Assembly (NCBI GenBank): GCA_040876345.1
Contig: JBBDPM010000004.1
Span: 14,980 to 78,979, forward strand
Source of the DNA: Candidatus Woykebacteria bacterium
GTDB lineage: Bacteria > Patescibacteriota > Microgenomatia > Woykebacterales > RBG-16-39-9b
Reading direction: 5' to 3'
DNA length: 64,000 bases
Position numbers and translations under genes: made by a program. This document shows positions 1-17,437 of this stretch, piece by piece. The notes under the pieces were generated by a model. That model was not told the DNA's origin. It did no database searches and worked only from the letters and a program-made list of their open reading frames with translations. Position 1 is the first letter of the stretch, and the number at the start of each line of letters is the position of its first letter.

Positions 1-330
1 TTCCATGCCATTTTCATCTTTGATAGCAAACTTGTCAGTTATAAACCGTCCAACACTAGTGATACGCTGTTGACCATCCAAAACTTCCAAATTGCTAGCA
101 CTCACTTTATTAAAATAAATTAAACCTATCGGGTACCCCTTAAGAACTGATTCAATAACGGCCATTTCTTTCTTACCACCGTCAGACGCATAAATATAGT
201 TGCGTTGGTATTCTGGCTGGATAGTCAATTTACCAGACAAACCAAATAGACCTTTACCCTCCAGTTCGTTATAGACAAATCCATCACAGATTTCTTTTAC
301 AGTTATGGTAGTTTCTAAAATTGTTTTCAT
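1..330 (-). CDS. DUF262 (ParB/Srx-like, GmrSD-N-terminal-type) domain protein, N-terminal part; gene runs past window start
   Basis: Open minus-strand frame from ATG at 330 to the window edge: [96 protein letters not shown]... LDGQQRIT is the DUF262 hallmark. Absent from the ORF track because it is partial. Confidence 0.55.
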
Positions 331-331
331 A

Positions 332-1522
332 TTATTTTTTCTTGTATTTAATAATTACTCTCATGTAAGGAATAGTGGCCTTTCCGTTTTCATTATAATA
401 GCCAAGAATTGGATGGTCTTCACTAATTGATCCTGTGCCTCCATTTTGATAATAATTACTTACAAACTCTTTATTTAAACCCTTTGGTGTAAGCTCTCTA
501 TATAAGTTACCTTGACCTAATCCAATAATTTCAAACTGCTCGGGAGAATACTTATCCAAAAAGCTAATCGGGACACCCATCAAACCGTTATAATCGCTCG
601 GGATATTTTTTACCAATGATACTTCTATCGCCTCATAATTGTCATATTTGTCATATGGTTTTTTTGTTACAAACTTGATTACCTCTGCCTTGGTCATAAG
701 CGGTAATGGTTCGTGACGACGTCCATGATCAAGGTTGGTGAACCAGCGGACGCCTTGCACTCTAGTGATATAAACTTTCTTGCCACTTTCATTTGTTTTT
801 ATTTCACGAACTTGCTCTAAATTTGCAATACCTTCTGGTATCTCAAAAAACATTGCACCACCATTGATTTTATAATTATTACCTAACCAAATTTTATTAT
901 CCTTAATTAGAGGAAATATATTCGTATATTTTAAAGCATTCAAGTTGCCGATGATCAAAAACTTTTTGTCATACTTAACAAGTTGTTGTATATACTCACG
1001 AAACAAACTGAATGGCGGATTAGTTACCACAATGTCAGATTGTTTCAGTAAATCTATAGACTCGTCACTACGAAAGTCGCCATCTCCTTCTAGTGGCGTC
1101 CATTCGTTATTCTTGTTTGCCTTTAACTGCTTGGCGACATCTTTTAAGTTAAATTCGCCATCACCGTCTATATCTTTCACTTCGTTGATAATAAATTTGT
1201 TGGCGGTTATCTTCGGACGTCCTTTTGACTTTGTGAGAGTTTTGTCGTCGCCAAATAATTGTAGTTGCGTGTTGGCGACAGGTGATGGCTTGTAGCTGGT
1301 AGTGATAAGCTGATTTAATCCGAGTTTGTTAAAATTGAGCACGAAATAGCGAAAAAAATTGCTTTCAAACGGATCGTCGCAGTTGCAATATATTACCTTA
1401 CCTCGGAATACATCGGGGTTATATTCTAAATATGCCCCAATCTCTTTCTGAATATCGCTATATTGGGTATAAAACTCGTCGTTCTTTACCCGTTTTGCAT
1501 TTGTAAGATTTTTGTTTGCCAT
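332..1522 (-). CDS. N6-adenine DNA methyltransferase (N6_Mtase-type, NPPF motif IV)
   Basis: ORF 332..1606. TNPPFSLF is motif IV of amino-MTases. Start chosen at ATG 1522 (MANKNL), preceded by GGAGAATAATTTT; this avoids overlap with the upstream gene, which ends at 1527. Confidence 0.7.
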
Positions 1523-1526
1523 AAAA

Positions 1527-2138
1527 TTATTCTCCACTCTCAATTCTTCGTCTGCGTTCATCGAGGGTTTCGCCGTCATACATCCAGTAATCAGTGCCTG
1601 CAACATTATAAGTAACCCCGAGAATTTTTTGAGCGGATGTTGAAAGACTTGTCACTTCACCACTATACTCAATTGATTTTCCTGAATTAAGATTTACGAC
1701 TTTAGCTTTTTTAGACTCGTCACGGCTGAAATAAATTTCAGAACCTAACGGAATGTTTGCCAATTCAAAATTAAACCTTCCACGCCGCTCAAGCGCTTCC
1801 TCGTGCGCCTCACGGTCTTCCTTAGATTCAATTAAATCTTTTTTAGGAGTAATATTTTCAACCTCTGCCAATTTTAAAGCCGCGACCACACGTTCCGGTG
1901 CAATTTGAAAGAATTCCCGACGTGGGTTCACACGGTTGTTATCAAAGGCATCGTGAAGTTGGTGTTCAACGAATTGAGAATTTTTTACAGTGCAAGCATA
2001 GAAAACTATAAAAGGTAACGGTACGCTAGTTGATGCACTTAATTCTCGAACGCGTTGTTCAAGGTTGTTATTTGTTTTCCCAATCTTCACATAACCAGGC
2101 ATCGCTTCATTAGTCAGGATATAAATAATCTCATTCAT
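1527..2138 (-). CDS. GIY-YIG nuclease superfamily protein (T5orf172/MUG113-like N-terminus, DUF4357-like C-terminus)
   Basis: N-terminus IYILTNEAMPGYVKIGKT...RV.EL resembles the T5orf172 GIY-YIG-like domain. First gene of a tightly packed minus-strand operon with the MTase and DUF262 genes. Confidence 0.6.
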   Translation of the reverse strand: MNEIIYILTNEAMPGYVKIGKTNNNLEQRVRELSASTSVPLPFIVFYACTVKNSQFVEHQLHDAFDNNRVNPRREFFQIAPERVVAALKLAEVENITPKKDLIESKEDREAHEEALERRGRFNFELANIPLGSEIYFSRDESKKAKVVNLNSGKSIEYSGEVTSLSTSAQKILGVTYNVAGTDYWMYDGETLDERRRRIESGE

Positions 2139-2203
2139 ATATTTTAATCAGCTTTGATCTAACATCAGTCTCGTTATCTGATAGTTTCATAATTTTATTT
2201 AGC

Positions 2204-2270
2204 TTGATTTTATCAAAAAAAGCTTGAATTAAACAGAAGAACTTTACTTTTAGATTGTTATAACAGAAAA
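2204..2270. repeat. Copy A of a ~66 bp direct repeat (ttgattttatcaaaaaaagcttgaattaaacagRagaactttaYYtttagattgttataRcaRaaaa)
   Basis: Near-identical, with 4 mismatches, to 3234..3300. Lies about 66 bp upstream of the GIY-YIG gene start on the minus strand. Confidence 0.85.
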
Positions 2271-2569
2271 ATTGAATTAAGGGCGGAAAACCCAAATCTT
2301 CAATATTGACCGAGGCAATTTAATTTTGGAAGTATAGAAATAAGGGGAAAGTATGTTGGTTTACTGCGAAAAGCAAGTTAGGCTAATTAATCAGGAGAGT
2401 TTTATCTTTGGATTATTGTAGAAGAAAATTCGTACTATGTGAAATTGACATTACTTGACAAAGTTGTTAATATATATTTTGGATGAGTGATAAGTCCGAT
2501 ACAGGTTGTTCTTAGTGTTCCCATTCATCTGTTTGGCTAAGCTAGGACAAAACAAGCCTGTAAGGCAAC

Positions 2570-3225
2570 TCATCCTTTTAAGTATAAATCCTCAAACTTT
2601 ACTTTCTCCTTAAAAGTTTCTAACCACTCTGTATCTCTTCTCTCATATTTTTGAAAGACTCCCCAGCAAAACATATCGGCAACCTGCAGCCCAGCACTTT
2701 GTTTCGAATCCCAATGATACATATCAAGAGTTACTTTGGGATCTAATCTACCTTGAATTTGAGAGCGGATATAAAAATTAAACTCATCAATCTCGGGTTT
2801 ACTTTTGGACCTATCAATAATAAGCTCGACCCTGTTTACATGGTTCTTTTCAAAAGGAATTTTGTCGATAACTTGTCTTGCAATAAAATTGTAAACTCTG
2901 GGTTTATCTTTAGTGAGTCTATCAAAGACCCTCTTCTTATTGAGAGTTATTGCATAAATCTCAAATTTAACTTTACTTAATTGATTGTAGAAGTACTGCT
3001 TAACTTCTAAAGTTGTATCTTTTCCTTTTAACTCTTCAACAATTCTTCTGCGGTGCCTTTTGGGGTTTAGTTTTCTACGCAGGGTAACCTTTACCCCTTT
3101 TGTTAATTTTCGATTGTCTTCTATCCCACTCACAGCCAAAATAGAAATCGTGAAGAATTTTGAAGGTTTTTTGTTGACAAAGTCAAACCCTAAATCACCA
3201 CTTTCGTCTAAGTATAAATACCACA
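2570..3225 (-). CDS. DUF3800 family protein
   Basis: MWYLYLDESGDLGF at the N-terminus and LQVADMFCWG near the C-terminus are the DUF3800 hallmarks. The ORF-track start at 3246/3247 is a TTG; the ATG at 3225 (MWYLYLDESG) is the more likely start. Confidence 0.7.
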
Positions 3226-3233
3226 TAGTTCCG

Positions 3234-3300
3234 TTTGATTTTATCAAAAAAAGCTTGAATTAAACAGGAGAACTTTATCTTTAGATTGTTATAGCAAAAA
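3234..3300. repeat. Copy B of the ~66 bp direct repeat
   Basis: Matches 2204..2270. Lies immediately upstream of, and overlapping, the 5' end of the DUF3800 gene on the minus strand. Confidence 0.85.
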
Positions 3301-3320
3301 ATACGTGATCATAAAACTGC

Positions 3321-3408
3321 TTGACTTGTAATTTTAACTCTGATATAAATTGATTCACTTAAATATTGTTTGTTCTGAACACTGCCTCAAAAGGCAGTTT
3401 TTTGTTTC
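3321..3408 (+). promoter_or_regulatory. Sigma70-like promoter (TTGACT, 17 bp spacer, TATAAA) followed about 30 nt downstream by an intrinsic-terminator-like hairpin (ACTGCC tcaaaa GGCAGT plus T-run), in the leader of the pilin/T4SS operon
   Basis: -35 at 3321-3326, -10 at 3344-3349. Hairpin at 3381-3398, followed by tttttgtttct. The RBS GGGGGTGA of the pilin gene follows at about 3422. Confidence 0.4.
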
Positions 3409-3434
3409 TAATCCACCCGAAAGGGGGTGAAGGC

Positions 3435-3767
3435 ATGAAAAAACTTATTGTATTACAGTCATTATTTGTAACCTCTCTGATTGTTGCCGCTCCGGCGTTT
3501 GCACAGAGCGCAGATGTGTCTAAAATCTCGAACTTTATCCAAAACATAATTACAATCTTAGTTACTCTCTCAGGATTTGTGGCAACAGGCTTTTTCGTCT
3601 GGGGAGGATTCAGCTACATTACCAGTACCGGAAACCCTGAATCACTGGATAGATCAAAAAAGACGATCTTCTATTCAGCAATCGGTTTGGCAATTGTACT
3701 TGGAGCATTTGTTATCAGTAATATTGTCACTCAGGTTGCAACTGGCGCGTTTGGCACAGGTAACTAA
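3435..3767 (+). CDS. Small secreted two-TM pilin-like protein (VirB2/TrbC-like topology)
   Basis: Start MKKLIVLQSL at 3435 with RBS AAAGGGGGTGAAGGC. Signal peptide ending AFA-QS, then a hydrophobic segment, GGFSYITSTGNPESL, and a second hydrophobic segment. Paralogous to the N-terminus of the next gene. Confidence 0.45.
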   Translation: MKKLIVLQSLFVTSLIVAAPAFAQSADVSKISNFIQNIITILVTLSGFVATGFFVWGGFSYITSTGNPESLDRSKKTIFYSAIGLAIVLGAFVISNIVTQVATGAFGTGN

Positions 3768-3792
3768 GGCAACTCTCTTAAGCCTAAATGTT

Positions 3793-5082
3793 ATGAGAAT
3801 GTTAACTTTTTTTGGCGCCGTGGCCTTATTTCTAATATCGACTACTTCGGCATATGCCGCGAGTAACACTGAAATTGCCAATTTTACCAACCAAACCCTT
3901 TCTGTCTTAATTATTATTGCTTCTTTGGCCTGTACTTTTTTCTTAATCAAGGGCGGTTATGCCTATATAACTTCAACTGGAAAACCCTATTCCCTTGAGA
4001 ACGCTAAAACCACAATTAGAAACGCACTTATTGGTTTTGTAGTTGTTCTGGGAGCTGGAGTAATTTCTTCCCTTTTAAATAATGCCTTTACCACACCAAC
4101 ATCCGGTCTAAATCCAAGTCAACTTAGTCTGACTCCAATCGTGCCTTCAACTCCAACCGGCGGTTTAACGCAAATACTACTTGATGCCGTATCCGGTTTT
4201 CTACAAAATATTGTTCAAAGTGCAACCAAGCCATTAACTGACGGGATCGTTTCCTTTCTGACTACAACACCGTCTCTGGTTTCAAACTCGGTCATTTTTA
4301 ACTTTTGGTTGGTCGTAGTCGGCATTACCGATTCGCTCTTTGCGCTGGTAATTGCCCTTTTAGGTTTCCACTTGATGAGTGCTTCAACTTTTGGGTTTGG
4401 TGAAATAGAGTTTAAACATTTACTCCCAAGAGTGGGCCTGGCCTTTTTACTAGCCAATACCTCAATCTTTCTGGCTGACTGGGTCGTTCAAAGCTGTAAT
4501 GTACTGGTCTCGGCGGTCCTGCATGCAACCGGGGGTATAAACAACGCTCTGGTAACAAATGCATTTGATCCGACTGCACTCTCAACCGGTACAACTCCGC
4601 TTATTATGCTGATTTTTATGATCCTGTTTGTAATTTTAGCAATAGTCCTGCTGCTTTTTTACGTCAGCCGGCTGATTTTTATTGCCTTAGGTGCAGTCCT
4701 CGCACCTCTTATCTTTCTTTTATGGGCAGTTCCAAAATTTACCGACTTTGCCGAAATTTCGATGAAAACCTACATCTTCACCGTATTTACGATTTTTGTT
4801 CATGTCGTAGTTATTCAACTTTCAACTGCATTTTTAACCCTGCCCGGACAAGTCGGAACAAATTCTCTGATTTCAATACTAGTTGGAATTGGGCTTTTGT
4901 TTACTCTTTTAAAAACTCCTTCAATCATGATGCAGTTGGTTTTCTACACTGCCGGTAATAGCTTGATTAAAAAAGTTGGCGGCCAAATTATGAACGTCAT
5001 GACCACGGATAAAAATGCGCCAGGAACAGTCGAGGAAACTGGTAGAGCTGTTTCTACCCCGAGAAAGGTGGTCAAGGCGTGA
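3793..5082 (+). CDS. VirB6/TrbL-like polytopic membrane protein with N-terminal pilin-like domain
   Basis: Start MRMLTFFGAV at 3793; the ORF-track extension back to 3577 overlaps the pilin gene. The N-terminal ~100 aa (signal peptide AYA-AS, GGYAYITSTGKPYSL) are homologous to the 3435..3767 product. This is followed by a Thr/Pro linker and at least 6 TM helices. Confidence 0.5.
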   Translation: MRMLTFFGAVALFLISTTSAYAASNTEIANFTNQTLSVLIIIASLACTFFLIKGGYAYITSTGKPYSLENAKTTIRNALIGFVVVLGAGVISSLLNNAFTTPTSGLNPSQLSLTPIVPSTPTGGLTQILLDAVSGFLQNIVQSATKPLTDGIVSFLTTTPSLVSNSVIFNFWLVVVGITDSLFALVIALLGFHLMSASTFGFGEIEFKHLLPRVGLAFLLANTSIFLADWVVQSCNVLVSAVLHATGGINNALVTNAFDPTALSTGTTPLIMLIFMILFVILAIVLLLFYVSRLIFIALGAVLAPLIFLLWAVPKFTDFAEISMKTYIFTVFTIFVHVVVIQLSTAFLTLPGQVGTNSLISILVGIGLLFTLLKTPSIMMQLVFYTAGNSLIKKVGGQIMNVMTTDKNAPGTVEETGRAVSTPRKVVKA

Positions 5083-5597
5083 GAACTCAAGTAATTCCAG
5101 CCCAAATCACCACAGTTGAGGATAAAATTGCCGGAAGTCTGAATTTAACCCAAATAATTCTTTTGATCTTTCCAGCTTTCTGGGCAACTATTGTTTATTC
5201 CTTATTTATCCCGAGACTTCAGCTTTCCTTATATAAATTACCACTGGTTTTGATTGTTTTGATCCTTTGTCTTGCTCTTTCAGTTCGAATTAAAGGCAGG
5301 GTGGTAATTAACTGGCTAGTAACAATTTTTAGATATAACCTGCGTCCGAAATACTATGTATTTGATAAGAACGATAGCTTTGCCAGAACACTGGATTTGC
5401 CTAACTTTAAAATGAGACAAAAATCCCAAATCAAGAAAACTATTACAATAGATGAAACCGAGAAAATTGCCGCCCCGGTAACAATTGGCAATTTAGTAAA
5501 ACTGGAAGGATTATTTACAAATCCTAAATACAGCTTTTCATTTAAATCAGGCCGAAAAGGAGGCTTAGATGTTGCTTTTAAACAAGAACAAAAATAG
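5079..5597 (+). CDS. PrgI/VirB3-like small membrane protein of Gram-positive T4SS
   Basis: TVEDKIAGSLNLTQIILLIFPAF... with two TM helices. Lies immediately upstream of VirB4, as in pCF10-type loci. Assignment from memory of the PrgI family pattern. Confidence 0.4.
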   Translation: MRTQVIPAQITTVEDKIAGSLNLTQIILLIFPAFWATIVYSLFIPRLQLSLYKLPLVLIVLILCLALSVRIKGRVVINWLVTIFRYNLRPKYYVFDKNDSFARTLDLPNFKMRQKSQIKKTITIDETEKIAAPVTIGNLVKLEGLFTNPKYSFSFKSGRKGGLDVAFKQEQK

Positions 5598-6189
5598 GGT
5601 CAGCTCAAGGCGCCAAATTCAGATCAAAGAGGTCAAAAACGGCACTTTAGTTCTGCCAGACAATGAATACAGATTAATTATTGAAACCTCCTCAATAAAC
5701 TTCGAGCTTAAAAGTGAGGAGGAGCAGGATATTTTAATTGACAATTTCCAAAACTTTCTTAACTCGCTTCCCTGTGAGCTTCAAGTTCTGGTTCGGGTTC
5801 GTGAAGTCGATATCGACCGTTATTTGGAGGAAATCGGTAAGAGCAAAGCGACTGAGCGCGAGAAGGTTTATCGAGATCAAATCAAAAACTACTGTAGTTT
5901 TATTAAAAACTTGGTGGCCGGCAATAAAATTTTATCACGGCGTTTTTACGTGGTTATCCCTTATAAGAATTCTGACAAAAACAGAGAGTTTGCACTAATT
6001 GAGGAACAAATTAACTTGCAGAAAGATATTATCCTGAGAGGCCTGGAGAAGCTAGGAATGAAAGCCAGGGTTTTGGACAGCTTAGAGCTTCTCGACCTGT
6101 TCTACAGCTTCTACAGCCCTGCACAGGCCAAAACTCAGGAGCTTAAAGGCCACACCATCGAAGCCCTGCTGGAGAATCAATATGTTTAA
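5569..6189 (+). CDS. VirB4/TrbE-like N-terminal domain protein (split from the ATPase)
   Basis: RBS AAAGGAGG precedes the ATG at 5569. 206 aa. Ends within ATGTTTAA, overlapping the start of the next ORF, which is in the +1 frame. Confidence 0.55.
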   Translation: MLLLNKNKNRVSSRRQIQIKEVKNGTLVLPDNEYRLIIETSSINFELKSEEEQDILIDNFQNFLNSLPCELQVLVRVREVDIDRYLEEIGKSKATEREKVYRDQIKNYCSFIKNLVAGNKILSRRFYVVIPYKNSDKNREFALIEEQINLQKDIILRGLEKLGMKARVLDSLELLDLFYSFYSPAQAKTQELKGHTIEALLENQYV

Positions 6190-8032
6190 TACTCTTGAAA
6201 AGCTAAATGAAATATCAGCACCTTATCTTGAGAAGCTCAAGAAAGTTAACCGCCGTAAGCGAACTTCCAAGAAAGAACAGGTTAAAAGATCATTTCAATT
6301 TAACTTTGGGGAGCAAGATCAAATTGATTTAATTTCTTACTCCGGTCTTGAAGAAAACAGCACTTACCTTCAGGTTGATAATAAATTTGTTCGAACACTT
6401 TTTATTTCCGGCTTTCCTTATGTAGCCTCAACCGGCTGGCTAAACATGCTGATTAATTTCAATCACAACATTGATATTTCTTATCACATTGAACAGGTAG
6501 ATCCCATTTATGCCCTGCCTAAACTCAACCGGAAAATTACTGAACTTGAATCAACTAAACGAGCCATGCTCAAAGACGGCAAAGTCATAGGTTCGGAAAT
6601 AACTGATCCGCTCAAATCAGCCATAGAGCTTAAAGACAAAATTCAAAGAGGTCAGGAAAAACTCTTCCAAGTCTCAATTTATATGACCATCTCAGCTGAC
6701 AGCTTAGTTGAGCTAAATAAAACAACCACAATTTTGGAAACTGTTATGTCGACCCGACTTTTTTATATCAAAACCGCCACCTTTCAACAGTTAGAGGGAT
6801 TGCAATCCACATTGCCCCGAGCAGAAAACATCTTAAACCAAAGACGCAATCTGGACAGCTCTTCGGCGGCCTTAACTTTTCCCTTTGTTTCCTCAGAACT
6901 CGTGCAGGAGTCCGGAATACTTTATGGAATCAATAAATCGAATAATTCACTCGTAATTATTGATAGGTTCTCGCTAAATAACGCTAACAGTATTGTCTTT
7001 GCCCAATCCGGAAGTGGTAAAAGTTACACCGCTAAAGTGGAAATTCTCAGACAACTGATGCAAGGAACAAAAGTCATTGTAATTGATCCGGAACGTGAAT
7101 ATAAACAATTAGCGGCGTCAGTAAACGGAACCTATATCAAGTTATCAGCCAAATCCATAGAGAAAATAAACCCTTTTGACTTTTCTTTAAGTTCTTATGG
7201 TGCCGAAAACGATTTAGCGGAGCATATTCAGGATTTAACGGAAATTATTTCTCTCATCGTCGGGGGCTTAAATTCAGAGGAAAAAGCCATTGTTGATAAA
7301 GCAATCATCCAAACCTACAAACAACAAGGTTTCTCACTGAATTACACATATATTCCAAAAGAGAATAAAAGTACTCGAGGTCGAAAGCCAAAAGATAGAA
7401 CTTACCCGCTACTGAAAGACTTTTACCAAGTCTTAAAAGAAATGCGACAAAAAGACCTTTGTGATCGTTTGGAAAAGTTTGTCAACGGGTCACTCTCTTC
7501 GGTCTTTGATTCCCAGACTAATATTGAACTTAATAATAGGCTAGTTGTCTTTGACATCAAAGACTTAAATGAATCTCTGCGAGAAATAATGATGTTAGCG
7601 GTTGCAAACTTTGTTAATTCGCAAGTTAAATCAAGCCCGCAGAAACAAATTCTAGTAATTGATGAGGGCTGGTTACTCCTGGAACATGAAGAGAGCGCCA
7701 GATTCGTTTCGGCACTTGTGAGGCGAGCCAGAAAATATTACTTGGGGGTAACGATTATTTCCCAACAGGCAAATGATTTTCTAAACAGTGAATATGGTCG
7801 GGCGATTGCGTCCCAGTCGTCGCTTAGAATCTTAATGAGGCAAGACACAACCACGATTAAAAAGGTGGCTGAAGAGTTTAAATTAAGCGAGTATGAAGAA
7901 CAGTTTCTTTTAACCTGTGATCGTGGAGAGGCACTGATAATTTCCGATCAGAACCACGTTGCCCTAAAAGTTGTTGCCTCAGACAAGGAACATCCTCTCC
8001 TAACTACTGACCCCAGAGAGATCTACATTTAA
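6182..8032 (+). CDS. VirB4/TrbE/CagE-family T4SS ATPase (C-terminal ATPase part)
   Basis: Walker A in FAQSGSGKSYTAK and Walker B in ILVIDEGW; 616 aa. Confidence 0.85.
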   Translation: MFNTLEKLNEISAPYLEKLKKVNRRKRTSKKEQVKRSFQFNFGEQDQIDLISYSGLEENSTYLQVDNKFVRTLFISGFPYVASTGWLNMLINFNHNIDISYHIEQVDPIYALPKLNRKITELESTKRAMLKDGKVIGSEITDPLKSAIELKDKIQRGQEKLFQVSIYMTISADSLVELNKTTTILETVMSTRLFYIKTATFQQLEGLQSTLPRAENILNQRRNLDSSSAALTFPFVSSELVQESGILYGINKSNNSLVIIDRFSLNNANSIVFAQSGSGKSYTAKVEILRQLMQGTKVIVIDPEREYKQLAASVNGTYIKLSAKSIEKINPFDFSLSSYGAENDLAEHIQDLTEIISLIVGGLNSEEKAIVDKAIIQTYKQQGFSLNYTYIPKENKSTRGRKPKDRTYPLLKDFYQVLKEMRQKDLCDRLEKFVNGSLSSVFDSQTNIELNNRLVVFDIKDLNESLREIMMLAVANFVNSQVKSSPQKQILVIDEGWLLLEHEESARFVSALVRRARKYYLGVTIISQQANDFLNSEYGRAIASQSSLRILMRQDTTTIKKVAEEFKLSEYEEQFLLTCDRGEALIISDQNHVALKVVASDKEHPLLTTDPREIYI

Positions 8033-8036
8033 TCCA

Positions 8037-8669
8037 GTGTCTCCAAATCTTTCCGCGATTGCAGCAATTTGGTCTTTCCGTCGAGAACTAAAATTTGTTT
8101 TCTTCGCCTTTCTAATTACCTTACTTATTCCCGTGCTTGCCGTCATTTTAGTTGCCAATATCGGCTTGAGTGTAGTTTCCAATGCGCTGGCGACAATAAA
8201 CCTGCAGAACAACACTGTCGAAATCCATGATCCGAGAACCGGACAAATAGTCCAGGAGCTTAAAATAACCGCTGTCTGGCCGGTACACGGGATTGTGACC
8301 CTGGAATTCGGCGAAAGCAACTTTCCTTTCCAGGTTTTTCATACCGGAATAGACATAGCCAGTCCTACGAGACAAATTGGCGATCCAGTGACACCTTTTA
8401 TGGAAGGAACGGTAACTTTTGCCGGAGAAATTCCCCTGGGACTTGGAAAACACGTCATAATTGATCACGGAAATAATATTACTTCCTATTACGGTCACTT
8501 AAGTGCCATTTATGTAGTAAAGGGACAAAAAGTAAAACCGGGCGACATAATTGGGGCGGAAGGAGAAACCGGCTGGGCAACTGGTCCACACGTGCATTTT
8601 CAAATTAATGTCTATGGAATCCCAGTTAACCCAAGAACTTTTTTACAAGGCAACCCTTCTTTAAGGTGA
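8037..8669 (+). CDS. M23 family metallopeptidase (LytM-like) with N-terminal TM anchor
   Basis: HTGIDIA, GHLS and GPHVHFQ motifs. GTG start at 8037. Confidence 0.8.
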   Translation: MSPNLSAIAAIWSFRRELKFVFFAFLITLLIPVLAVILVANIGLSVVSNALATINLQNNTVEIHDPRTGQIVQELKITAVWPVHGIVTLEFGESNFPFQVFHTGIDIASPTRQIGDPVTPFMEGTVTFAGEIPLGLGKHVIIDHGNNITSYYGHLSAIYVVKGQKVKPGDIIGAEGETGWATGPHVHFQINVYGIPVNPRTFLQGNPSLR

Positions 8670-8708
8670 AATACAAACTATCTCTAAAGATTGTATAATG
8701 AGGAAAAT

Positions 8709-8915
8709 ATGAACTCTCAAGAACAGCTAGGTAAAAACTTAAAAAAAGCTAGACAAAAGTCTGGAATGACCCAGGCCACTGTGGCTGAAAAGGCCGAGGT
8801 ACATGTTAATTATTATGCTAGAATTGAAAGAGGTGAGGTAAACCCGTCGATTGAAATCTTGGAGAACATAGCCAAAGCTTTGAAAGTAAACTCTTCTGAA
8901 ATCTTACCTTTTTAA
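8709..8915 (+). CDS. XRE-family helix-turn-helix transcriptional regulator
   Basis: GMTQATVAEKAEVHVNYYARIERGE is an HTH_3 pattern. ATG at 8709 with RBS TGAGGA. Confidence 0.7.
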   Translation: MNSQEQLGKNLKKARQKSGMTQATVAEKAEVHVNYYARIERGEVNPSIEILENIAKALKVNSSEILPF

Positions 8916-9352
8916 ATAAATCTCTTGAGTTTCAGAAAATCAAACATTTGATTTACAGTTTCAGATCCTTCTATCCTTCTCATTATTTCGCGGCTGTGGT
9001 TTTGGGAAAAAATGTTAAGACTGCCTTCCCAGAGAACAGTTCTATCAAGTATGGCCAGCTTTCGATGGTGATTGCCCAGGCAAATTAGCACTTGAACTCC
9101 TACGACTTCAAATGCTCGTATTCCCGTCTCGGATTGTTGTTCGAGTTTGATCTCATGCTCCTTTGGATTTCTCGTAATGACGAACACCCTTACATTTTTG
9201 TTTAGCAATTTTTTAAGAATTGGTAAGAATAATTTCATTCTTTCGTTGGTTATATAAGGACTTTCAATAATTACTTCCTTTTGACAACTGACTAGGTCTT
9301 TTATAAAAGCTTGGTAAAAAGTTGTCTCATCAAAGAGTTGGGAGGAGAACAT
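8912..9352 (-). CDS. PLD-family (single HKD) nuclease, Nuc-like
   Basis: Perfect HxK(x4)D(x6)GSxN motif in HHRKLAILDRTVLWEGSLN. Start overlaps the stop of the recombinase gene (TAATG). Confidence 0.75.
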   Translation of the reverse strand: MFSSQLFDETTFYQAFIKDLVSCQKEVIIESPYITNERMKLFLPILKKLLNKNVRVFVITRNPKEHEIKLEQQSETGIRAFEVVGVQVLICLGNHHRKLAILDRTVLWEGSLNIFSQNHSREIMRRIEGSETVNQMFDFLKLKRFI

Positions 9353-10992
9353 TACTCTTCCTCCTCTTCCTTATGGTAAACTTCCATTAACTGACTCAGC
9401 CAGGCTAAAAGCGGTTCAAAAGAAAGTGCGGTTGGGTCACCATATGCTTTTTGTTCAGACAAAAAAGCTGGTTGGAGGGTATCGTAAGGTTGTTTTAGCC
9501 TCACATCCACAACTGTTTTGTTATCAATAACAAATTCCTCGATAAATGCATTGATAAACATTCTCTTAGTTGTGGGATCTGCGATTTTGTAGAGATCGTA
9601 ACAATTATTAAGTATACTTAGTGTTTTATCTAAAGCCCGAAGTCTCATCTTCTCGTCCTCTGTGGTTGATTGTCTATGTTGATTTAGAACAGCCGTTTGT
9701 CGATCGTACTCAACAATCTTTACTTCATAAATATCTTCCGGTATTCTCTTTTCCAAATGTTCCTCGACTAACCTTAACCGCTTTTCCAAAAGAGCCTTAT
9801 ACGCTTTATCAGCTGTTTCTTTTGTTAACCCGGACTGTTCTTTTACCTCCTGCTCAATTTGCTTAACCCGTATTGAAACTAAATTGTACATTGCCTTAGG
9901 AAGTTGAAGTCTCTTGAATATATTCTCAACCTTATCCTCGAGAATTGATGCTGACACCATTGGTTGGTCACAAAGCTCTCGACCGTTTCTAATTGAGCCA
10001 ATACATCTGTGATAGAGCCACTGACCTCTTTGTAAATCTCTTGTTAAACCACTTCCACACCTGAAACATTTTAACTTACTTGCCGTTAAGACAACATCTG
10101 CCGTATTAGTAGTTCTGGTCTTGGGTTTCTGTCTAAGTTTAAGAACCTCCTGAATTCTGTGCCAGGTTGGATCATTCCACATTGGTGGGTGCTCTCCTTT
10201 TGACTCCACAACCTCGTTCGTTTTTCGATCTTTAAATGTAACAAGCCCTGCGTAGAACTTACTTGAAAGTATTCTCCTCAAACCCTCAGTTCTAATAGGC
10301 CGCCCGTTGTGAGTTAGGTATCCTGAGTTGTTAAGCTCCTTGCATATTTGGTGAAGGGTAAACTGATCAGTAGAATAAAGTTTGCCTGCGTATTTAAGTG
10401 CATCAAATCTTTGTGGATCAATCTCAATCCAACTCTTTCTTCTCCCGTCCTCTAGCAGAATTCGTTTATTCAAGTATCCTTGCGGTGCAACAAACATCCA
10501 CTTGCCATCCTTTGTTCTCTGTTTCATACCTTTTACTACTTCTTGAGCTAGATTTCTTATATACCATTCATTAATCAAACTCATTTGTCTTCGAGCAAAC
10601 CAACCAGCAGGATTTGTGGGGTCAATGGGTTCTGAAGCACTAACAATAGACACCCCAATTTTATTCAAGTCTTTTTCATACTTCTGAAATTCAAAATCGT
10701 TTCTGAAAGCTCGATCGAACTTGTGAATGATTATATATTTGAAGAATCCTTGTTTAGCGTCATTAAGCAATTGGTTAAACTCTTCTCGGTTCTCAGCCAG
10801 CTTCCCACTTTCTAAATCGACATACTCTCTGTAGATTGGCAATTTTGGTGGTAGGATAAGGTTTTGGCCAAACTGAATGGCCTTGTAACAATTGTCGAGC
10901 TGAGCTGGTATCGAGACTTCTTTCTTTTGTCTTTCTTCATCACTCATTCGACAATAAATAGCTACTTTCTCTTCTGGTTCAATCTTTTTCAT
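9352..10992 (-). CDS. Large serine recombinase (integrase)
   Basis: N-terminal resolvase domain with VAIYCRMSDEE (catalytic Ser), then a recombinase domain and a Cys-rich zinc ribbon (CFRCGSGL...HRC). Start MKKIEPEE at 10992, preceded by GGAAGTGA. Confidence 0.85.
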   Translation of the reverse strand: MKKIEPEEKVAIYCRMSDEERQKKEVSIPAQLDNCYKAIQFGQNLILPPKLPIYREYVDLESGKLAENREEFNQLLNDAKQGFFKYIIIHKFDRAFRNDFEFQKYEKDLNKIGVSIVSASEPIDPTNPAGWFARRQMSLINEWYIRNLAQEVVKGMKQRTKDGKWMFVAPQGYLNKRILLEDGRRKSWIEIDPQRFDALKYAGKLYSTDQFTLHQICKELNNSGYLTHNGRPIRTEGLRRILSSKFYAGLVTFKDRKTNEVVESKGEHPPMWNDPTWHRIQEVLKLRQKPKTRTTNTADVVLTASKLKCFRCGSGLTRDLQRGQWLYHRCIGSIRNGRELCDQPMVSASILEDKVENIFKRLQLPKAMYNLVSIRVKQIEQEVKEQSGLTKETADKAYKALLEKRLRLVEEHLEKRIPEDIYEVKIVEYDRQTAVLNQHRQSTTEDEKMRLRALDKTLSILNNCYDLYKIADPTTKRMFINAFIEEFVIDNKTVVDVRLKQPYDTLQPAFLSEQKAYGDPTALSFEPLLAWLSQLMEVYHKEEEEE

Positions 10993-11167
10993 TATCACTT
11001 CCATTTTGTTCTGATAAATTTACAGTGTCAACCATACCTGCTTGTTCAGACAAATAGGTTCGGTCCTTATCAAATGCTTGCCAAACTGCCATAGAAAGCT
11101 CTTCAACTCTAAGTTGCCAGATCTTTAAGCATCCTCATTCTGTTCCCCAGTCTCTTTCCTAATAAGT

Positions 11168-11536
11168 TCAAGGTCTAGCATCTTGCCCTTCCTTAAACTT
11201 CGTTTGATAGCCCCATCTTTTTAGAATGCCTTGAAAGTAGATGGCTCTCTTTCGAACAAGACGTCCTTCGGTGGCGGCAAGTTTAGTAAAGCTCAAAGCC
11301 TCGTATAGTTTCTGGGGGTCGTAGTTATTAGCAAGTAGTCGGTAATAACCAAGGCTTCTCTCGTCACTGAGACCTTGAGCGAGAACCTTCGCCACACTTT
11401 CCTCTTCTAAGCCAAAGGAGCTAACCAAGTGGTTGACTTGGTCTGTTACAGTAATACTGTTAACTGTATTTGAATTCCTCTTAAGACTGTTAACAGTTTC
11501 TTCTTTTCCCTTCAAGGTTTCTTTAAGACTTTCCAT
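11168..11536 (-). CDS. Hypothetical protein with DnaD/DDBH2-like C-terminal motif
   Basis: C-terminal AIYFQGILKRW fits the YxxxIxxxW motif of DnaD-like replication proteins, which are common in mobile elements. Confidence 0.35.
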   Translation of the reverse strand: MESLKETLKGKEETVNSLKRNSNTVNSITVTDQVNHLVSSFGLEEESVAKVLAQGLSDERSLGYYRLLANNYDPQKLYEALSFTKLAATEGRLVRKRAIYFQGILKRWGYQTKFKEGQDARP

Positions 11537-11764
11537 AAACTAAAATCTGCCGGCTCAGAGAGTAACCAGCAGATTACGGCCTCCCTGAAATTGCCAACTA
11601 AAAAGCAGCCCTTGGTTCATCGTTAATCTTTAATCATTTGACGAACTTTCGGCTGCTACCTTGAGCAACTGTGGAGACTGGAAAGTCCTACCACCTTATT
11701 TATTTGTTAATCATATTATAACACAAGCAACAAGATTGTGCTGGAATCTCTTTAATTAAACATT

Positions 11765-11841
11765 GGCCTAGCAGCAAATAAGACGTGAAAGCGTCGGAGT
11801 CGTAATGCGGCACATCCCGTTGACTCTGACGCTGCTAGGCC
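11765..11841 (+). other. GC-rich imperfect long hairpin (GGCCTAGCAGC...GCGTCGGAGTC / GACTCTGACGC-TGCTAGGCC) with a duplicated TGCGGCACAT(C/T)C box
   Basis: Complementarity was read directly from the sequence. Lies between the recombinase/DnaD-like genes and a small ORF with strong RBS AAAGGAGG. Confidence 0.4.
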
Positions 11842-11902
11842 GATGACGAGGGGTGTGTCGCACTATTTTGCGGCACATTCACAACCAAAGGAGGTCTAGC
11901 AA

Positions 11903-12127
11903 ATGGGTTACTGGGAAATAATAGGTATATTGTTCTTGATTTCCGTTCTTCTAGCGGGGATCTTGGAAAAGAATTGGAAACCGCTACTTGGTTTGATTGG
12001 AGCAATCATATTTCTAGTCTTATTCTTTCTCTTTGTGGACTGGCTTTCACCTAAACCTGGTGAAACCACACCCGAATCCGATCCAAGTTGTATCGAAATG
12101 CAAGGGCAAACAAGGTTGGGCTGCTAA
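11903..12127 (+). CDS. Small two-TM membrane protein
   Basis: Strong RBS AAAGGAGG 8 nt upstream. 74 aa, hydrophobic. Confidence 0.4.
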   Translation: MGYWEIIGILFLISVLLAGILEKNWKPLLGLIGAIIFLVLFFLFVDWLSPKPGETTPESDPSCIEMQGQTRLGC

Positions 12128-12414
12128 CCAATTTCCTAGCAAATCTTAACAAGTAGGTACTTACTCAACATTTCTCAACAAAATCGATTCTGTGAGCAAA
12201 TAGGCACGCTCAGAAACTTAGAATAGATGTTTAGGGCGATTTCCCCAAATACTGCGCGACTAGGTGAGGCATTTAGATAAAGTAAATTATTTTCCAAAAA
12301 GGGTGGTGCGGTAGGGCACTAGCATTTTGAGGCTGAAGTTTCTCTAAACTCCTAAATACTATTTAGTTATTTTAAGTTTGCCGACAACGAGAATAATTGT
12401 TAGAATAGACTACT

Positions 12415-13386
12415 ATGAGTCAGAATAAGGCAGCACTTACTAACAAACCAAAGAAGCACCACTATGTTTCTCAGTTCTATCTGAGGGGCTTTCTGGATTC
12501 AAATAGTCAATTAAACATCTTTGATAGGTACAACAAAGTCTTTTTGAAACGTACTCCTGGTGGTATTGCTTATAACGAGAACTACTACACTGTCGACACC
12601 AAACAGGAGAAGGGCAGCACTATTCTTGAAGAGACACTCGGGCTAGTTGAAACAAAAGCAAAGCCAGTAATTGACAAGCTAACTCAGCACGGAGCTGTGT
12701 TAACCAAAGAGGAACGTGAGAATCTTGGCCTTTTCCTAGCTCTTCAACAACAAAGGGTGCCTGATAGTGAAAAAGCTAAGCGGGAAATGGCGGAAAAGAC
12801 TTATAAAGCCGTGGCTCAGAAGTTTGCTCATCTTTTGGCGACAAATAATGAGGCCTTTGAAACCACCAAGAAAAAGGTGCCTAAAGTTAAGGGCTCGCCA
12901 GAATTAACGCAAGAAGATTGGCTTGGGCTTGCTACAGGTGAGAAGTTTAAATTGGAAATTGAGGTACCGCACAGTTTTGTAGTTAAGCAGATGTTTGACT
13001 TGGCGCTTGAAGTCGCTCCGCTTATTTGTCAAATGAATTGGAAAGTTCTTTACGCATCGAAGAGTAGGGCTTTCACTACATCAGACAACCCATTCATCTT
13101 AAGTGGTAGTCCTTGGGCTCCAGGTAGAGGTGTGGGGCTTATTACGCCGAGGTCAAGAAAGTTCTTCCCTTTAACAAAGGGCGCTTGTTTGTTTATGGGC
13201 GATCAGCCAACAGCAACACTGGAGTTTGCTAGTGCTACTTCAGATGGGGTTCGTCAAATTAACAGGTTGACTGCACTTAACAGTGATAGATATATAATCT
13301 CTCATAATCAAGATCTGCTGAAGAGAATAGTAAAGATAACGAAAGTCGATACCTTCATAAAAGAGGAACGAGTTCAAGTAGGATAG
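12415..13386 (+). CDS. DUF4238 family protein
   Basis: N-terminal HHYVSQFYLRGF matches the DUF4238 signature (HYVPQFYL.xF), from memory. Own promoter TTGCCG, 17 bp spacer, TAGAAT at about 12374-12402. Confidence 0.55.
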   Translation: MSQNKAALTNKPKKHHYVSQFYLRGFLDSNSQLNIFDRYNKVFLKRTPGGIAYNENYYTVDTKQEKGSTILEETLGLVETKAKPVIDKLTQHGAVLTKEERENLGLFLALQQQRVPDSEKAKREMAEKTYKAVAQKFAHLLATNNEAFETTKKKVPKVKGSPELTQEDWLGLATGEKFKLEIEVPHSFVVKQMFDLALEVAPLICQMNWKVLYASKSRAFTTSDNPFILSGSPWAPGRGVGLITPRSRKFFPLTKGACLFMGDQPTATLEFASATSDGVRQINRLTALNSDRYIISHNQDLLKRIVKITKVDTFIKEERVQVG

Positions 13387-13388
13387 AT

Positions 13389-13976
13389 TTACTCACAAGC
13401 TGTGCCGTCACCATCCCTATCAAGGTCGTAAATATCATAACCTATTACCTGAACCGGGCCTGAGACATAAGCAGGGCCATTTCCAGATCCCCCAGCGCAA
13501 TCAACATCGCTAGCAATTGGAACACAACCAGAATAGTTGGGGTCACAATTTGATTTCTGAGCTAATGGGGCAACATAAGTGCCGTTCGCCACAATCTTTT
13601 TCACAGGTTCAGTAACAATCTTTTCAGAAATCTTTTTGCGCGAAACCTCAACACCACCCTCATAAGTAACCTCGTACTTGATCTCCTTTGTACCATCTCT
13701 TCCTTCCTGAGTTATCCTCGTCTTACCTTTTTCCAGCGTAGTGTCGATAGCTTCCTCAGTTTCAAAGGAAACGTTCTCGGTTTCGGTAATAGTCTTAACT
13801 TCGTTTGTTGGCTTTGATTCTTGAATGGTACTCTCTACTTTGGGAGCTGGTTTCGGTTCAGATGAGGGTGAAACAGCCGCAGCAAACACAGTGCCGCTTA
13901 CTAACGCGGCACCAATAAAGGCAGCCTTACCGGCGAGCGAGAGAGCGGAGAACTGAGATTTAAGTTTGTTCAGCAT
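13389..13976 (-). CDS. Secreted G5-domain protein with C-terminal Excalibur calcium-binding domain
   Basis: Signal peptide. G5-like segment ITQEGRDGTKEIKYEVTYEGG. C-terminal CDPNYSGCVP...DLDRDGDGTACE is the Excalibur DxDxDGxxCE motif. Confidence 0.6.
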   Translation of the reverse strand: MLNKLKSQFSALSLAGKAAFIGAALVSGTVFAAAVSPSSEPKPAPKVESTIQESKPTNEVKTITETENVSFETEEAIDTTLEKGKTRITQEGRDGTKEIKYEVTYEGGVEVSRKKISEKIVTEPVKKIVANGTYVAPLAQKSNCDPNYSGCVPIASDVDCAGGSGNGPAYVSGPVQVIGYDIYDLDRDGDGTACE

Positions 13977-14048
13977 ATTTCACGGCGATTGTACCATATT
14001 TGCTTGATAAAGTAATAAATTGCCTTTTGGGTCTATAATGAACCGGCA

Positions 14049-14444
14049 ATGCAAGAAGAAACTGAAAGCTCAAGTTCTGGGTCTAACCTCTGTGGTGGTC
14101 TATTTTGGGCCGTCGTTATTATAGGTGGTTTGATCTGGTTTGGAAACAAAGTATACAGAAATAACATCGAAAGCGAGAAGAAGCCTTTTTGGAGTGGGAC
14201 TGAAACTGTGCAAGTTTGCAAAGCTCCGTATTACTCCAGCAGCGACTGCTACAAACTACCCGTAACTTTGATTGACGAGGAAAGGGCACAAATTAGATTC
14301 AACAATGGAGGGTATGTTGTTGTCGGCGGCCTAAATTGTTGGAACGCGGCAAAGTTGGATGAGACTCCTCGTTATGTCTTTTGCAGAAGTGAGGATAATG
14401 AGGGAAACCGTTGGGATTTCCTACCGAACTGGGTAAATTATTAA
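14049..14444 (+). CDS. Hypothetical membrane-anchored Cys-containing protein
   Basis: One TM helix and 6 Cys. No recognised domain. Confidence 0.3.
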   Translation: MQEETESSSSGSNLCGGLFWAVVIIGGLIWFGNKVYRNNIESEKKPFWSGTETVQVCKAPYYSSSDCYKLPVTLIDEERAQIRFNNGGYVVVGGLNCWNAAKLDETPRYVFCRSEDNEGNRWDFLPNWVNY

Positions 14445-14480
14445 AATGGTAACTACTAAACAGGCACTTCAACGCGTGCT

Positions 14481-15587: not shown

Positions 15588-15650
15588 TCTAGCATTTTTG
15601 GCCTAAATTATACTAGTTTTCCAATTAATCTAACCTTATAATCACCATAT

Positions 15651-16514: not shown

Positions 16515-16576
16515 CCCTGGATTATTCTCTCTAATCAGTGCTATAGGATTTTTGTGTCGAGATTCTGAGACACCCC

Positions 16577-16806
16577 TTTTTATAGGGTCTCATTTGTCTC
16601 ATTTAGCCTCCTGATGAGACAAGACCCTTGCGACTATAATCGTCCTCGATTTAGTCCACGAGGTGGTCGCAAAGCGCGAAGCGATCTACATCTCGCCGCT
16701 TGAAACTCTGCGAGTTATAATCGCAGATTACATCAGCTCTTGTAACACAAGAGTGTTATAGCGACTGAACTGACCGAGACCCCAATGCTTCACCATTGTT
16801 GTTTCC
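16577..16806. repeat. Intergenic repeat family, copy 1 (~230 bp), ends GGGTCTC...GAGACCC
   Basis: 5' block tttttataGGGTCTCATTTGTCTCA, internal ATTTAGCCTC, and 3' block AGCGACTGAACTGACCGAGACCCCAATGCTTCACCA are shared with copy 2. Contains an internal hairpin GGGTCTcattTGTCTCAT...ATGAGACAagaccc. Confidence 0.8.
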
Positions 16807-16875
16807 TTGGTGACAAATGGCCCAATTAGCTCGAAGGATAAGTAAGTTCAAGAAAGGCAGGAGGGCAGGTAAGAA

Positions 16876-17286: not shown

Positions 17287-17437
17287 CTCCTAACCAATAG
17301 TGTTATTACTTGTATTGTACAGATAAATTACACATTTATAATTAGGAGCACCTTTCGAAAAGTGGGCTAAAGAACCTTCGTGGTCACCAATTAGCCTCTT
17401 TTGACTAGCCTTCTATGCAAACTGTATAATTAAATTA

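Follow-up and report, generated by a model that had tools for sequence, protein, structure and literature searches.

A compact type IV secretion operon with a pilin–VirB6 fusion in a Candidatus Woykebacteria genome, and its possible place in an integrative conjugative island

The type IV secretion systems (T4SSs) of the Patescibacteria, bacteria belonging to the candidate phyla radiation (CPR), are among the most discussed new branches of T4SSs; they are pilin-bearing systems of monoderm cells and include the first T4SS shown to be essential for the growth of its bearer. Epibiotic growth of S. epibionticum requires both the T4SS and its pilin array, and the lack of recognisable coupling and relaxase proteins was noted there (Wang et al. 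2023; PMC10633639). A survey of 3,035 Patescibacteria genomes found VirB4 in 2,417 of them, with nearest homologues almost always from the same class, and placed the Patescibacteria VirB4 clade within MPF_FATA (Quinonero-Coronel et al. 2025; PMC12102498). TrsD was the commonest VirB4 partner and PrgI/VirB3 homologues were present; VirB2 arrays occurred especially in Microgenomatia and Saccharimonadia, VirB6 was ‘scarce’ in Microgenomatia, relaxases were rare, and type IV coupling proteins (T4CPs) rarely lay within ±20 genes of virB4 (PMC12102498), points that a 2025 review repeats (PMC12857230). The subject of this analysis is a six-gene cluster at positions 3435–8669 of a 64-kb stretch of DNA (the window) from a Candidatus Woykebacteria bacterium, which in identity and architecture is very probably a complete, selectively maintained T4SS operon of the Patescibacteria type, derived from MPF_FATA, and whose second gene encodes a pilin domain fused to a VirB6-like protein.

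All coordinates are window positions, with negative numbers lying upstream of window position 1 on the same contig. The operon consists of six intact, co-directional open reading frames (ORFs) on the + strand, which encode a VirB2/TrbC-like pilin (3435–3767, 110 aa), the pilin–VirB6 fusion (3793–5082, 429 aa), a PrgI/VirB3-like protein (5079–5597, 172 aa), a TrsD-like protein equivalent to the N-domain of VirB4 (5569–6189, 206 aa), the C-part of the VirB4 ATPase (6182–8032, 616 aa) and an M23 hydrolase (8037–8669, 210 aa). Spacing between the genes is tight; neighbours either overlap (by 4, 29 and 8 nt) or are separated by short gaps (25 and 4 nt). Profile searches bear out every part that the original prediction, made from the DNA letters without database searches, had named (pilin, pilin–VirB6 fusion, PrgI/VirB3, two-part VirB4 and M23), and its description of a minimal Gram-positive-type T4SS agrees with the best VirB4 model being the Firmicutes CD1110 family, followed by the VirB4 of the Mycoplasma integrative and conjugative element (ICE). 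Directly upstream lies a terminator-like GC hairpin with a T-run (3381–3408, + strand; 7-pair stem, TTTTTTG tail).

The pilin gene starts with an ATG at 3435 that is preceded by GGGGGTGAAGG. Its product matches the Pfam families TrbC (44.2 bits, cut-off 27.9) and T4SS_pilin (42 bits, cut-off 26.6), and its match to NF045849, the pilin-like family of the Mycoplasma ICE, stays below threshold (36.8 bits, cut-off 40). A Sec-type signal peptide, ending ...APAFA before QS, is followed by a two-helix hydrophobic hairpin, and the hydrophobic segments span residues 1–19, 34–52 and 77–95. By profile, signal peptide and hairpin, the protein is a predicted member of the VirB2/TrbC family.

The fusion protein consists of a signal peptide (residues 1–22), a pilin hairpin (residues ~23–99, nt 3859–4089), a Pro/Thr/Ser linker (residues ~100–124) and a VirB6/TrbL-like polytopic domain (residues ~125–407, nt 4165–5013). 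The N-terminus matches Pfam T4SS_pilin with 33.5 bits, and residues ~127–403 match TrbL_4 with 26.5 bits, just under the cut-off of 27 (this hit is numbered 199–475 in a scan of a longer, 501-aa ORF starting at 3577). The free pilin and the N-terminus of the fusion are 41% identical over 76 aa in BLASTP (E 7e-17), in agreement with the paralogy originally proposed for them. Many orthologues of the fusion have hits to PF19590 or PF19597, and homologues pair either of these with PF18895.

An AlphaFold2 model of the fusion built from 59 homologues (mean predicted local distance difference test score, pLDDT, 74; predicted template modelling score 0.67) contains a signal helix, the pilin hairpin with helices 26–60 and 65–99 (pLDDT 82–90), a disordered stretch at 103–111 and then seven long helices. 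When the model was compared with the PDB using Foldseek, the top five matches were R388 TrwI/VirB6 chains (7o3v, 8rtd, 8rt9); the statistics are weak (E 0.04–0.37, probability 0.87–0.99, template modelling scores 0.37–0.42) and the lower-ranked matches are noise. The C-terminal part is thus predicted to be polytopic, with at least five transmembrane (TM) helices and a VirB6 fold. The N-terminus of Agrobacterium VirB6 lies outside the membrane, and the topology of the fusion is self-consistent, with the C-terminus of the pilin outside once the signal peptide has been cleaved, the Pro/Thr linker and then the N-terminus of VirB6 outside. Profile-versus-PDB sequence searches with the fusion, PrgI-like, TrsD-like and Replic_Relax families gave no meaningful match.

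The PrgI-like protein, whose GTG start overlaps the stop of the fusion gene by 4 nt, scores 22.8 bits against Pfam PrgI, under the cut-off of 27; all 28 orthologues collected match PrgI (PF12666) and essentially nothing else, with a best E of 5.8e-9. It contains two TM-like segments (17–35 and 51–69) and weakly matches the N-terminus (positions 2–126) of the Mycoplasma VirB3–VirB4 fusion NF045975. The TrsD-like protein matches positions 11–175 of the CD1110 VirB4 model (E 2.4e-10), the TrsD/TraD family (E 1.4e-5) and Pfam TraC_F_IV. The VirB4 C-part, with an 8-nt overlap between its ATG start and the TrsD-like stop (ATGTTTAA), matches positions 180–734 of NF045971 conju_CD1110 with 359.5 bits (cut-off 325), the Mycoplasma ICE VirB4 with 290.9 bits, and Pfam P-loop_TraG, AAA_10 and DUF87; its Walker A (AQSGSGKS) and Walker B (ILVIDE) motifs are intact. 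VirB4 is encoded by two genes (~206 aa and ~600 aa) in every related locus examined, and the split is therefore a TrsD plus VirB4 arrangement; a frameshift or pseudogene was considered and is ruled out by this conservation. Among the 120 closest VirB4 homologues (79–100% identity), every organism-named one is from Patescibacteria, mostly Microgenomatia, including Woykebacteria, Daviesbacteria, Gottesmanbacteria and Curtissbacteria. NCBI lists identical copies of VirB4, UvrB and Lon under Candidatus Woykebacteria bacterium, and the genome is a metagenome-assembled one.

The last gene encodes a protein with a Peptidase_M23 domain (Pfam, 98.7 bits), intact HxxxD (HTGID) and HxH (HVH) motifs and a TM anchor at residues 21–39. 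It is a predicted membrane-anchored peptidoglycan endopeptidase of the LytM type and a putative functional analogue of VirB1. A hydrolase gene always directly follows VirB4 in relatives. In L038/L039 (12056–12556) a CHAP-domain hydrolase occupies the M23 position, so that the position is conserved and the enzyme family exchangeable. None of the proteins of the module matches VirB7, VirB9, VirB10 or VirB8-like families in Pfam or NCBIfam.

Neither the fusion nor the VirB4 split is confined to this locus. More than 1,282 homologues of the fusion, of ~430 aa, share its domain pair, and NCBI names them ‘pilin’ or ‘TrbL family protein’. A search with the TrbL part among 1.84 billion cluster representatives returned 572 families; all of the ~45 full-length TrbL representatives (27–67% identity) have a pilin hidden Markov model (HMM) match in the ~100–130 residues before the TrbL part, and unfused ~280-aa proteins and high-GC, apparently actinobacterial ones occur only among the weaker matches. 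The fusion had been called unusual, which holds with respect to model T4SSs, but within the family it is the rule. A scan of species-representative genomes yielded 30 CPR loci with a related operon, and the order pilin, fusion, PrgI, VirB4 N-part, VirB4 C-part, hydrolase is identical in every CPR locus with enough sequence; with this six-gene synteny in ~30 CPR loci, VirB4 is not an isolated gene among neighbours that are unrelated elsewhere. Even the distant locus L038, with a TrbL part 32% identical, has the same operon, there amid the housekeeping genes for glycolysis, KsgA and UvrD.

Two side observations concern the related contigs. Nine of them (L005, L006, L007, L009, L014, L022, L025, L030 and L032) are labelled uncultured Gammaproteobacteria or Pseudomonadales in the collection of species-representative genomes; their gene content and closest homologues are Patescibacterial, and the labels on these operon-bearing contigs are probably wrong. 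Broken genes also occur, with the VirB4 C-part in two ORFs in L017 (4848–6760) and the fusion gene in two ORFs in L025 (10303–11639) and L031 (10305–11566), through either pseudogenisation or sequencing errors.

The literature already describes the system as a whole, and the locus does not represent a new kind of system. The three papers on it (PMC10633639, PMC12102498, PMC12857230) make no mention of a pilin–VirB6 fusion, TrbL, Replic_Relax or a recombinase, and the supplement files searched from the 2025 survey contain no Replic_Relax, TrbL, Resolvase or PLDc_2. Two aspects are possibly unreported. One is the pilin–VirB6 fusion found throughout the family, probably the explanation for the VirB6 ‘missing’ from Microgenomatia; the other is the recurrence of sets of T4CP, Replic_Relax, T4SS and serine recombinase, which suggests that some Patescibacterial T4SSs are still conjugative.

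The original prediction held that no VirD4 or relaxase lies inside the window and that the apparatus could therefore serve secretion or host contact rather than conjugation. Inside the 64-kb window the absence stands: HMMs of the relatives' proteins run against six-frame translations found no T4CP- or relaxase-like ORF, with nothing at E≤1. A T4CP or relaxase hidden in the window is ruled out by this result, the large ORFs being UvrABC, PPase, PPDK, Lon and similar. On the contig the absence does not hold, and the argument for secretion rested on where the window ends. The T4CP of the closest relative identified an orthologue (P0411) on the same 469,346-bp contig (JBBEDR010000004.1, assembly GCA_040881185.1), upstream of the window, where that prediction had suggested looking. 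The locus of P0411 (L043) overlaps contig L035 at 100% over 3,101 bp, and L035 is identical (100%) to window 1–2233; these overlaps therefore place the T4CP at −13788..−11170 and a Replic_Relax gene at −10550..−9789, both on the + strand. The T4CP (872 aa) passes the Pfam cut-offs for TrwB_AAD_bind (38 bits) and TraG-D_C (25.6 bits), and the Replic_Relax protein passes that of PF13814 (29.6 bits). On the strand of the operon, the pair is located 13–17 kb upstream of the pilin gene, with the T4CP 11–14 kb upstream of the window and 23 genes between it and virB4. The published linkage of T4CPs may be underestimated, because a ±20-gene search misses T4CPs that are separated by cargo.

Between the T4CP and Replic_Relax genes is a + strand ORF of 136 aa with no Pfam match; it contains a Q...CGAAC motif reminiscent of papain/C39-like peptidases. 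No NCBIfam or PDB relative of the Replic_Relax protein was found, and a literature search gave no direct support for a link between Replic_Relax and MOBC relaxases. The copy in this genome carries Glu in place of the nearly invariant Asp of the PDAY motif, and Lys where YFLE usually has an acidic residue.

About 13 kb of defence and repair cargo on the opposite strand separates Replic_Relax from the T4SS operon, comprising DUF2958, SRAP, a Y-family polymerase, HEPN, DUF2779, DUF8370/8371, GmrSD_N/HNH, an EcoRI-like methylase, T5orf172 and DUF3800. The last three lie in the window on the − strand: an EcoRI-like adenine methyltransferase (332–1606; Pfam EcoRI_methylase 417 bits, PADLOC MTase_II), T5orf172/PDC-S57 (1527–2138; Pfam T5orf172 68 bits, PADLOC PDC-S57) and DUF3800 (2570–3247; Pfam 56 bits, PADLOC DUF3800_VII).

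On the other side of the operon, a large serine recombinase of 550 aa (9352–11004, − strand; Resolvase 76, Recombinase 44 and Zn_ribbon_recom 27 bits, NCBIfam XisF/CcrB-like) is a candidate integrase at the right end of the island. Directly upstream of it is a 122-aa ORF (11168–11536, −) with no Pfam, NCBIfam or PADLOC family, beside which lies a terminator-like hairpin (11544–11575). Large serine recombinases also flank the operon in L010, L012, L013, L017, L018, L021 and L024, and the corresponding place before the recombinase holds an unrelated small ORF in L010, L012, L013, L018, L021 and L024. The island can thus be read in the order T4CP, 136-aa ORF, Replic_Relax, cargo, six-gene operon, helix-turn-helix (HTH) gene, phospholipase D (PLD)-family gene, recombinase and 122-aa ORF (to 11536), the last three on the − strand. 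As regards the features of an ICE, the locus has a serine recombinase at one end and a T4CP linked to it on the contig, on the same strand as the operon.

Related loci show the same association at closer range. In 14 of ~33 loci, a T4CP of ~850 aa (TrwB_AAD_bind and TraG-D_C above cut-offs) and a Replic_Relax protein of ~250 aa are encoded upstream within ≤10 kb. In one layout (type A), T4CP and Replic_Relax are on the same strand as the operon with 3.5–7 kb of cargo between, often with the HTH/PLD pair after the operon; the window genome has a type-A-like layout, and in L010, also type A, a serine recombinase adjoins the T4CP. In the other (type B), found in L012, L013 (4141–20250), L018 (5902–17129), L021 and L024 and partially in L015, L023, L028 and L033, a compact block of ~11 kb has the order DUF3768, then Replic_Relax and T4CP (divergent), then the six-gene operon, then a small ORF and a large serine recombinase. 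The flanks of type B blocks are unrelated between genomes, and the blocks are candidate minimal ICEs of CPR bacteria. More generally, the gene content beside the operon varies from locus to locus, with much defence and metal-resistance cargo. In a neighbour-joining tree of VirB4, T4CP presence is scattered and very close pairs differ (L007 versus L031, L010 versus L019); some loci scored as lacking a T4CP may have one beyond 10 kb, as the window genome does.

The genome contains a second, inverted, paralogous operon, which starts just past the 3′ end of the window beside ksgA/yidC, a conserved chromosomal T4SS neighbourhood in the survey (PMC12102498). A VirB4 (P0131, 89% identical) and a fusion (P0007, 80%) are encoded on the same contig, and the Logan contig L036 carries VirB4, M23, a 79-aa ORF and PLD (1–3674) before running at 100% identity into window 64000–60371 (L036 3675–7304), a segment that holds KsgA (63169–63954), a 305-aa ORF, YidC and Band_7. 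Amino acid identity between the copies is 82% for the pilin, 80% for the fusion, 64% for the PrgI-like protein, 83–87% for the VirB4 N-part, 89% for the VirB4 C-part, 86% for M23 and 57% for PLD; the DNA is ~77% identical, with the copy 2 contig L001 aligning from window 3413. The ratio of non-synonymous to synonymous substitution rates (dN/dS) between the copies is 0.05–0.07, with dS saturated, from which it follows that both are maintained genes. For each copy, other samples contain relatives that are closer than the paralogue, yet the two are sisters in a small tree. With 2,474 VirB4 proteins in 2,417 assemblies in the survey (PMC12102498), two operons ~55 kb apart in one small CPR genome appear to be uncommon.

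The border of the operon invites two remarks. The short-read contigs of both copies (L034 for copy 1, L001 for copy 2) begin at the base homologous to 3413, and the stretch before the ribosome-binding site (translated ...HPKGGEGM) is conserved between them; a shared repeat probably breaks assemblies at window 3381–3413. Beside the second copy, a tRNA-Pro gene (63894–63968, −) overlaps the annotated GTG start of the KsgA ORF, and the true ksgA start is probably further downstream.

What the operon does was weighed between several readings. The favoured one, to which we give about an even chance or slightly less, is that it is the transfer module of an ICE-like island of ~25 kb, with this copy used for conjugative DNA transfer and not for interaction with a host, because T4CP, Replic_Relax and a serine recombinase are linked in cis, defence cargo and variable flanks surround the operon, and compact type B units occur in relatives. 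In the first rival, somewhat doubtful in our judgement, the operon forms a pilus or channel for host attachment, effector delivery or uptake of material, and does not transfer the DNA of the epibiont itself; the copy in the window would then be an accessory paralogue diversifying pilin and host specificity, with T4CP and Replic_Relax as unrelated neighbours or exapted. Several observations weigh on that side and against conjugation. T4SSs are near-universal and mostly vertically inherited in Patescibacteria (VirB4 in 2,417 of 3,035 genomes, nearest homologues almost always of the same class); in S. epibionticum ML1 the T4SS and pilin array are essential for epibiotic growth, with no recognisable relaxase and a dispensable T4CP; and the published surveys conclude that the T4SS was co-opted away from conjugation (PMC10633639, PMC12102498, PMC12857230). 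The distant L038 operon sits among housekeeping genes, the second copy holds the conserved ksgA/yidC position, and no T4CP is seen within 7–10 kb of the operon in the closest relatives (L040, L041 and L002). The pilin, fusion and PrgI-like proteins are the most diverged between copies (82, 80 and 64%) against 89% for VirB4. There is only distant similarity between the window recombinase and those of the relatives (E 1e-8 to 1e-21); Replic_Relax is a candidate relaxase, and with two conserved acidic positions substituted this copy could be inactive. No oriT, att sites or excised circle were identified, and no search for an oriT was made. Serine recombinases leave no long direct repeats. Set against the host-interaction reading are the same-strand T4CP and Replic_Relax linked in 14 of ~33 loci and in the window genome, the compact units with a serine recombinase in unrelated flanks, and an operon that encodes no effector candidates.

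An inward-directed machine, like Helicobacter ComB or archaeal Ced, that takes up host DNA, RNA or nucleotides for processing by the PLD nuclease is improbable. CPR bacteria have no nucleotide biosynthesis, the operon has a single-HKD PLD nuclease-like gene beside it in both copies and in at least 11 loci, a 2026 preprint ties T4SS-like pili to the acquisition of host RNA (10.64898/2026.06.21.733656), and the T4CP resembles the archaeal DNA-importing ATPase CedD; this resemblance, at 45 bits, is far under the 600-bit cut-off and no stronger than the TraD-type matches, the PLD protein lacks a signal peptide and resembles nothing more specific than the generic PLD domains found in defence proteins, and nothing in the locus indicates direction. 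That essentiality in S. epibionticum is independent of comEC excludes a role dependent on ComEC transformation and does not show import (PMC12857230). Least of all do we credit a decaying remnant or an artefact, whether the leftover of a dead mobile element, a frameshifted VirB4 or a mis-assembled duplicate, which we consider very unlikely. Some relatives do have broken genes (VirB4 in L017, the fusion in L025 and L031) and short-read contigs break at the operon border, but here none of the six ORFs is broken and the catalytic motifs are preserved, VirB4 is split in every related locus and the dN/dS of 0.05–0.07 denotes strong purifying selection; independent Logan contigs reproduce window 3413–18032 and 1–2233 at 100% identity, and an assembler cannot have collapsed or duplicated copies that are only ~77% identical in DNA.

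In R388, VirB6 is the platform where VirB2 is recruited and polymerised. By analogy with R388, the PrgI/VirB3 protein and the TrsD-like N-domain would dock a VirB4 hexamer on the membrane, and the VirB6 domain would oligomerise into the base of a channel. The tethered pilin hairpins could form a fixed first ring or stalk in place of VirB5/VirB8, on which the free pilin would polymerise into a pilus or conduit, while the anchored M23 protein would open the thin peptidoglycan locally. The linked T4CP would deliver island DNA processed by Replic_Relax after excision by the serine recombinase. It counts against this scheme that the role given to the fused pilin domain is drawn purely from analogy.

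The remaining neighbours can be described briefly. Directly after the operon are an XRE-type HTH gene (8691–8915, +; 74 aa, Pfam HTH_3 63.7 bits) and the gene for a single-HKD, Nuc-like PLD-family protein (8912–9352, −; 146 aa, no signal peptide, Pfam PLDc_2 42.9 bits, HRKLAILD motif). The PLD gene is convergent with the HTH gene, overlaps the recombinase gene by one base and is predicted to be co-transcribed with it. In at least 11 loci an HTH/PLD pair is again found downstream of the hydrolase gene (PLD follows the operon in L002, L004, L007, L009, L014, L019, L025, L026, L030, L031 and copy 2, L036), with 0–4.5 kb of variable genes inserted between, as if marking the end of the conserved backbone. 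PADLOC gave generic domain matches only for this pair (MkoC/DrmC PLD, control-protein HTH) and no defined defence system. Downstream of the recombinase (12415–15587) are genes for a DUF4238 and a SIR2-like protein, and the remaining window is ordinary chromosome (UvrABC, H+-PPase, PPDK, Lon), in which gene sizes and order appear to mark an ATP synthase operon.

The stretch upstream of the operon is a defence-gene hotspot (window 332–3247; L035 1904–6285), and in L041 (18–6941) the same place holds T5orf172, SNF2, a Dnd-associated SMC-like ATPase and a D12 methyltransferase. Directly upstream of the T4CP, L043 6075–9900 (about −17700..−13900) contains a bAvd-like gene and an RVT_1 reverse transcriptase, a pair resembling a diversity-generating retroelement, preceded by two paralogous ORFs of 267 and 268 aa (~77% DNA identity) and shorter internal repeats. 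A tRNA gene (L043 3951–4024) is followed by a sequence of ~100 bp that starts in the tRNA 3′ end (L043 3951–4115) and recurs inverted, at 93%, at window 47276–47375 (−) between an SBP_bac_5 gene and a 273-aa ORF. The repeat matched no Rfam family; an old remnant of an att site is one possibility and a repeated intergenic element another.

Taken jointly, the proposal that the VirB2–VirB6 fusion is a defining and ancient trait of Patescibacterial T4SSs (27–97% identity) and that the T4SS is still the transfer machine of genuine CPR ICEs is put forward tentatively, as possible rather than probable. The VirB6 that surveys of Microgenomatia missed is present as a fusion, and the fusion may be that ‘missing’ VirB6, a built-in pilus base replacing VirB5/VirB8, which offers a structural hypothesis for pilus nucleation without these proteins. 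The ICEs of CPR bacteria may combine a T4CP with a Replic_Relax-type initiator and a large serine recombinase and be as small as ~11 kb, and such compact units with their T4SS might serve as genetic tools for CPR bacteria.

Among known systems, the MPF_FATA class of Firmicutes (CTn2 CD1110; TrsC-TrsD-TrsE of pGO1/pSK41; PrgI-PrgJ-PrgH-PrgK of pCF10) shares with the operon a CD1110-class VirB4, a PrgI-like VirB3, a cell-wall hydrolase in the operon and a monoderm design without an outer-membrane core, and pGO1/pSK41 also have the separate gene for the TrsD-like N-domain. Gram-positive MPF_FATA systems have no VirB2-type pilins and use adhesins instead, with a VirB8-like PrgL/TraM and a VirB1 of the SLT/CHAP type, whereas pilins, a pilin–VirB6 fusion and M23 are found here and there is no VirB8-like match; they also carry a canonical relaxase and T4CP within the operon, while here the T4CP is separated by cargo. 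With two VirB2-type domains and no VirB8-like match, the operon is therefore a derived MPF_FATA variant, as the literature states.

The Mycoplasma ICE is likewise a minimal system of wall-poor or monoderm cells on an integrative element without a classical relaxase. The pilin (36.8 bits) and the fusion N-terminus (24 bits) resemble the Mbov_0395 family (cut-off 40), VirB4 resembles Mbov_0397 (290.9 bits) and the PrgI-like protein its N-terminus, all under the family cut-offs. The Mycoplasma element has VirB3 fused to VirB4 and a DDE transposase; here VirB3 and the N-domain and C-part of VirB4 have a gene each and the recombinase is of the serine type. In comparison with the R388 stalk, in which a TrwI/VirB6 pentamer and VirB5 carry a VirB2 pilus, the C-terminal 300 aa of the fusion have a TrwI/VirB6-like fold, a weak match, and the pilin domains match Pfam TrbC/VirB2. 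Unlike R388, the operon has no VirB5, VirB8 or VirB7/9/10, and its VirB6-attached pilin hairpin is without counterpart in solved systems.

The closest likeness is to the T4SSs of the Patescibacteria clade, such as SEML1_0006-0019 of S. epibionticum ML1, with VirB4 and a separate TrsD-like gene, PrgI/VirB3 and VirB2-like pilins in a monoderm-type cluster, a peptidase directly downstream of virB4, no recognisable VirB7/9/10 or VirB8 and no relaxase within ±20 genes. The operon differs from the six-pilin array of S. epibionticum in having two pilin-type units, one free and one fused, and from published descriptions of the clade in that VirB6 is fused to a pilin domain. The published position is close to dnaA/ksgA; the copy described here is in a recombinase and defence island instead, and the second copy holds that position. 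Compared with the T4SS loci of Saccharibacteria, as had been proposed at the outset, the operon is very probably of the same Patescibacteria-clade type, found here in a genome of Candidatus Woykebacteria (Microgenomatia).

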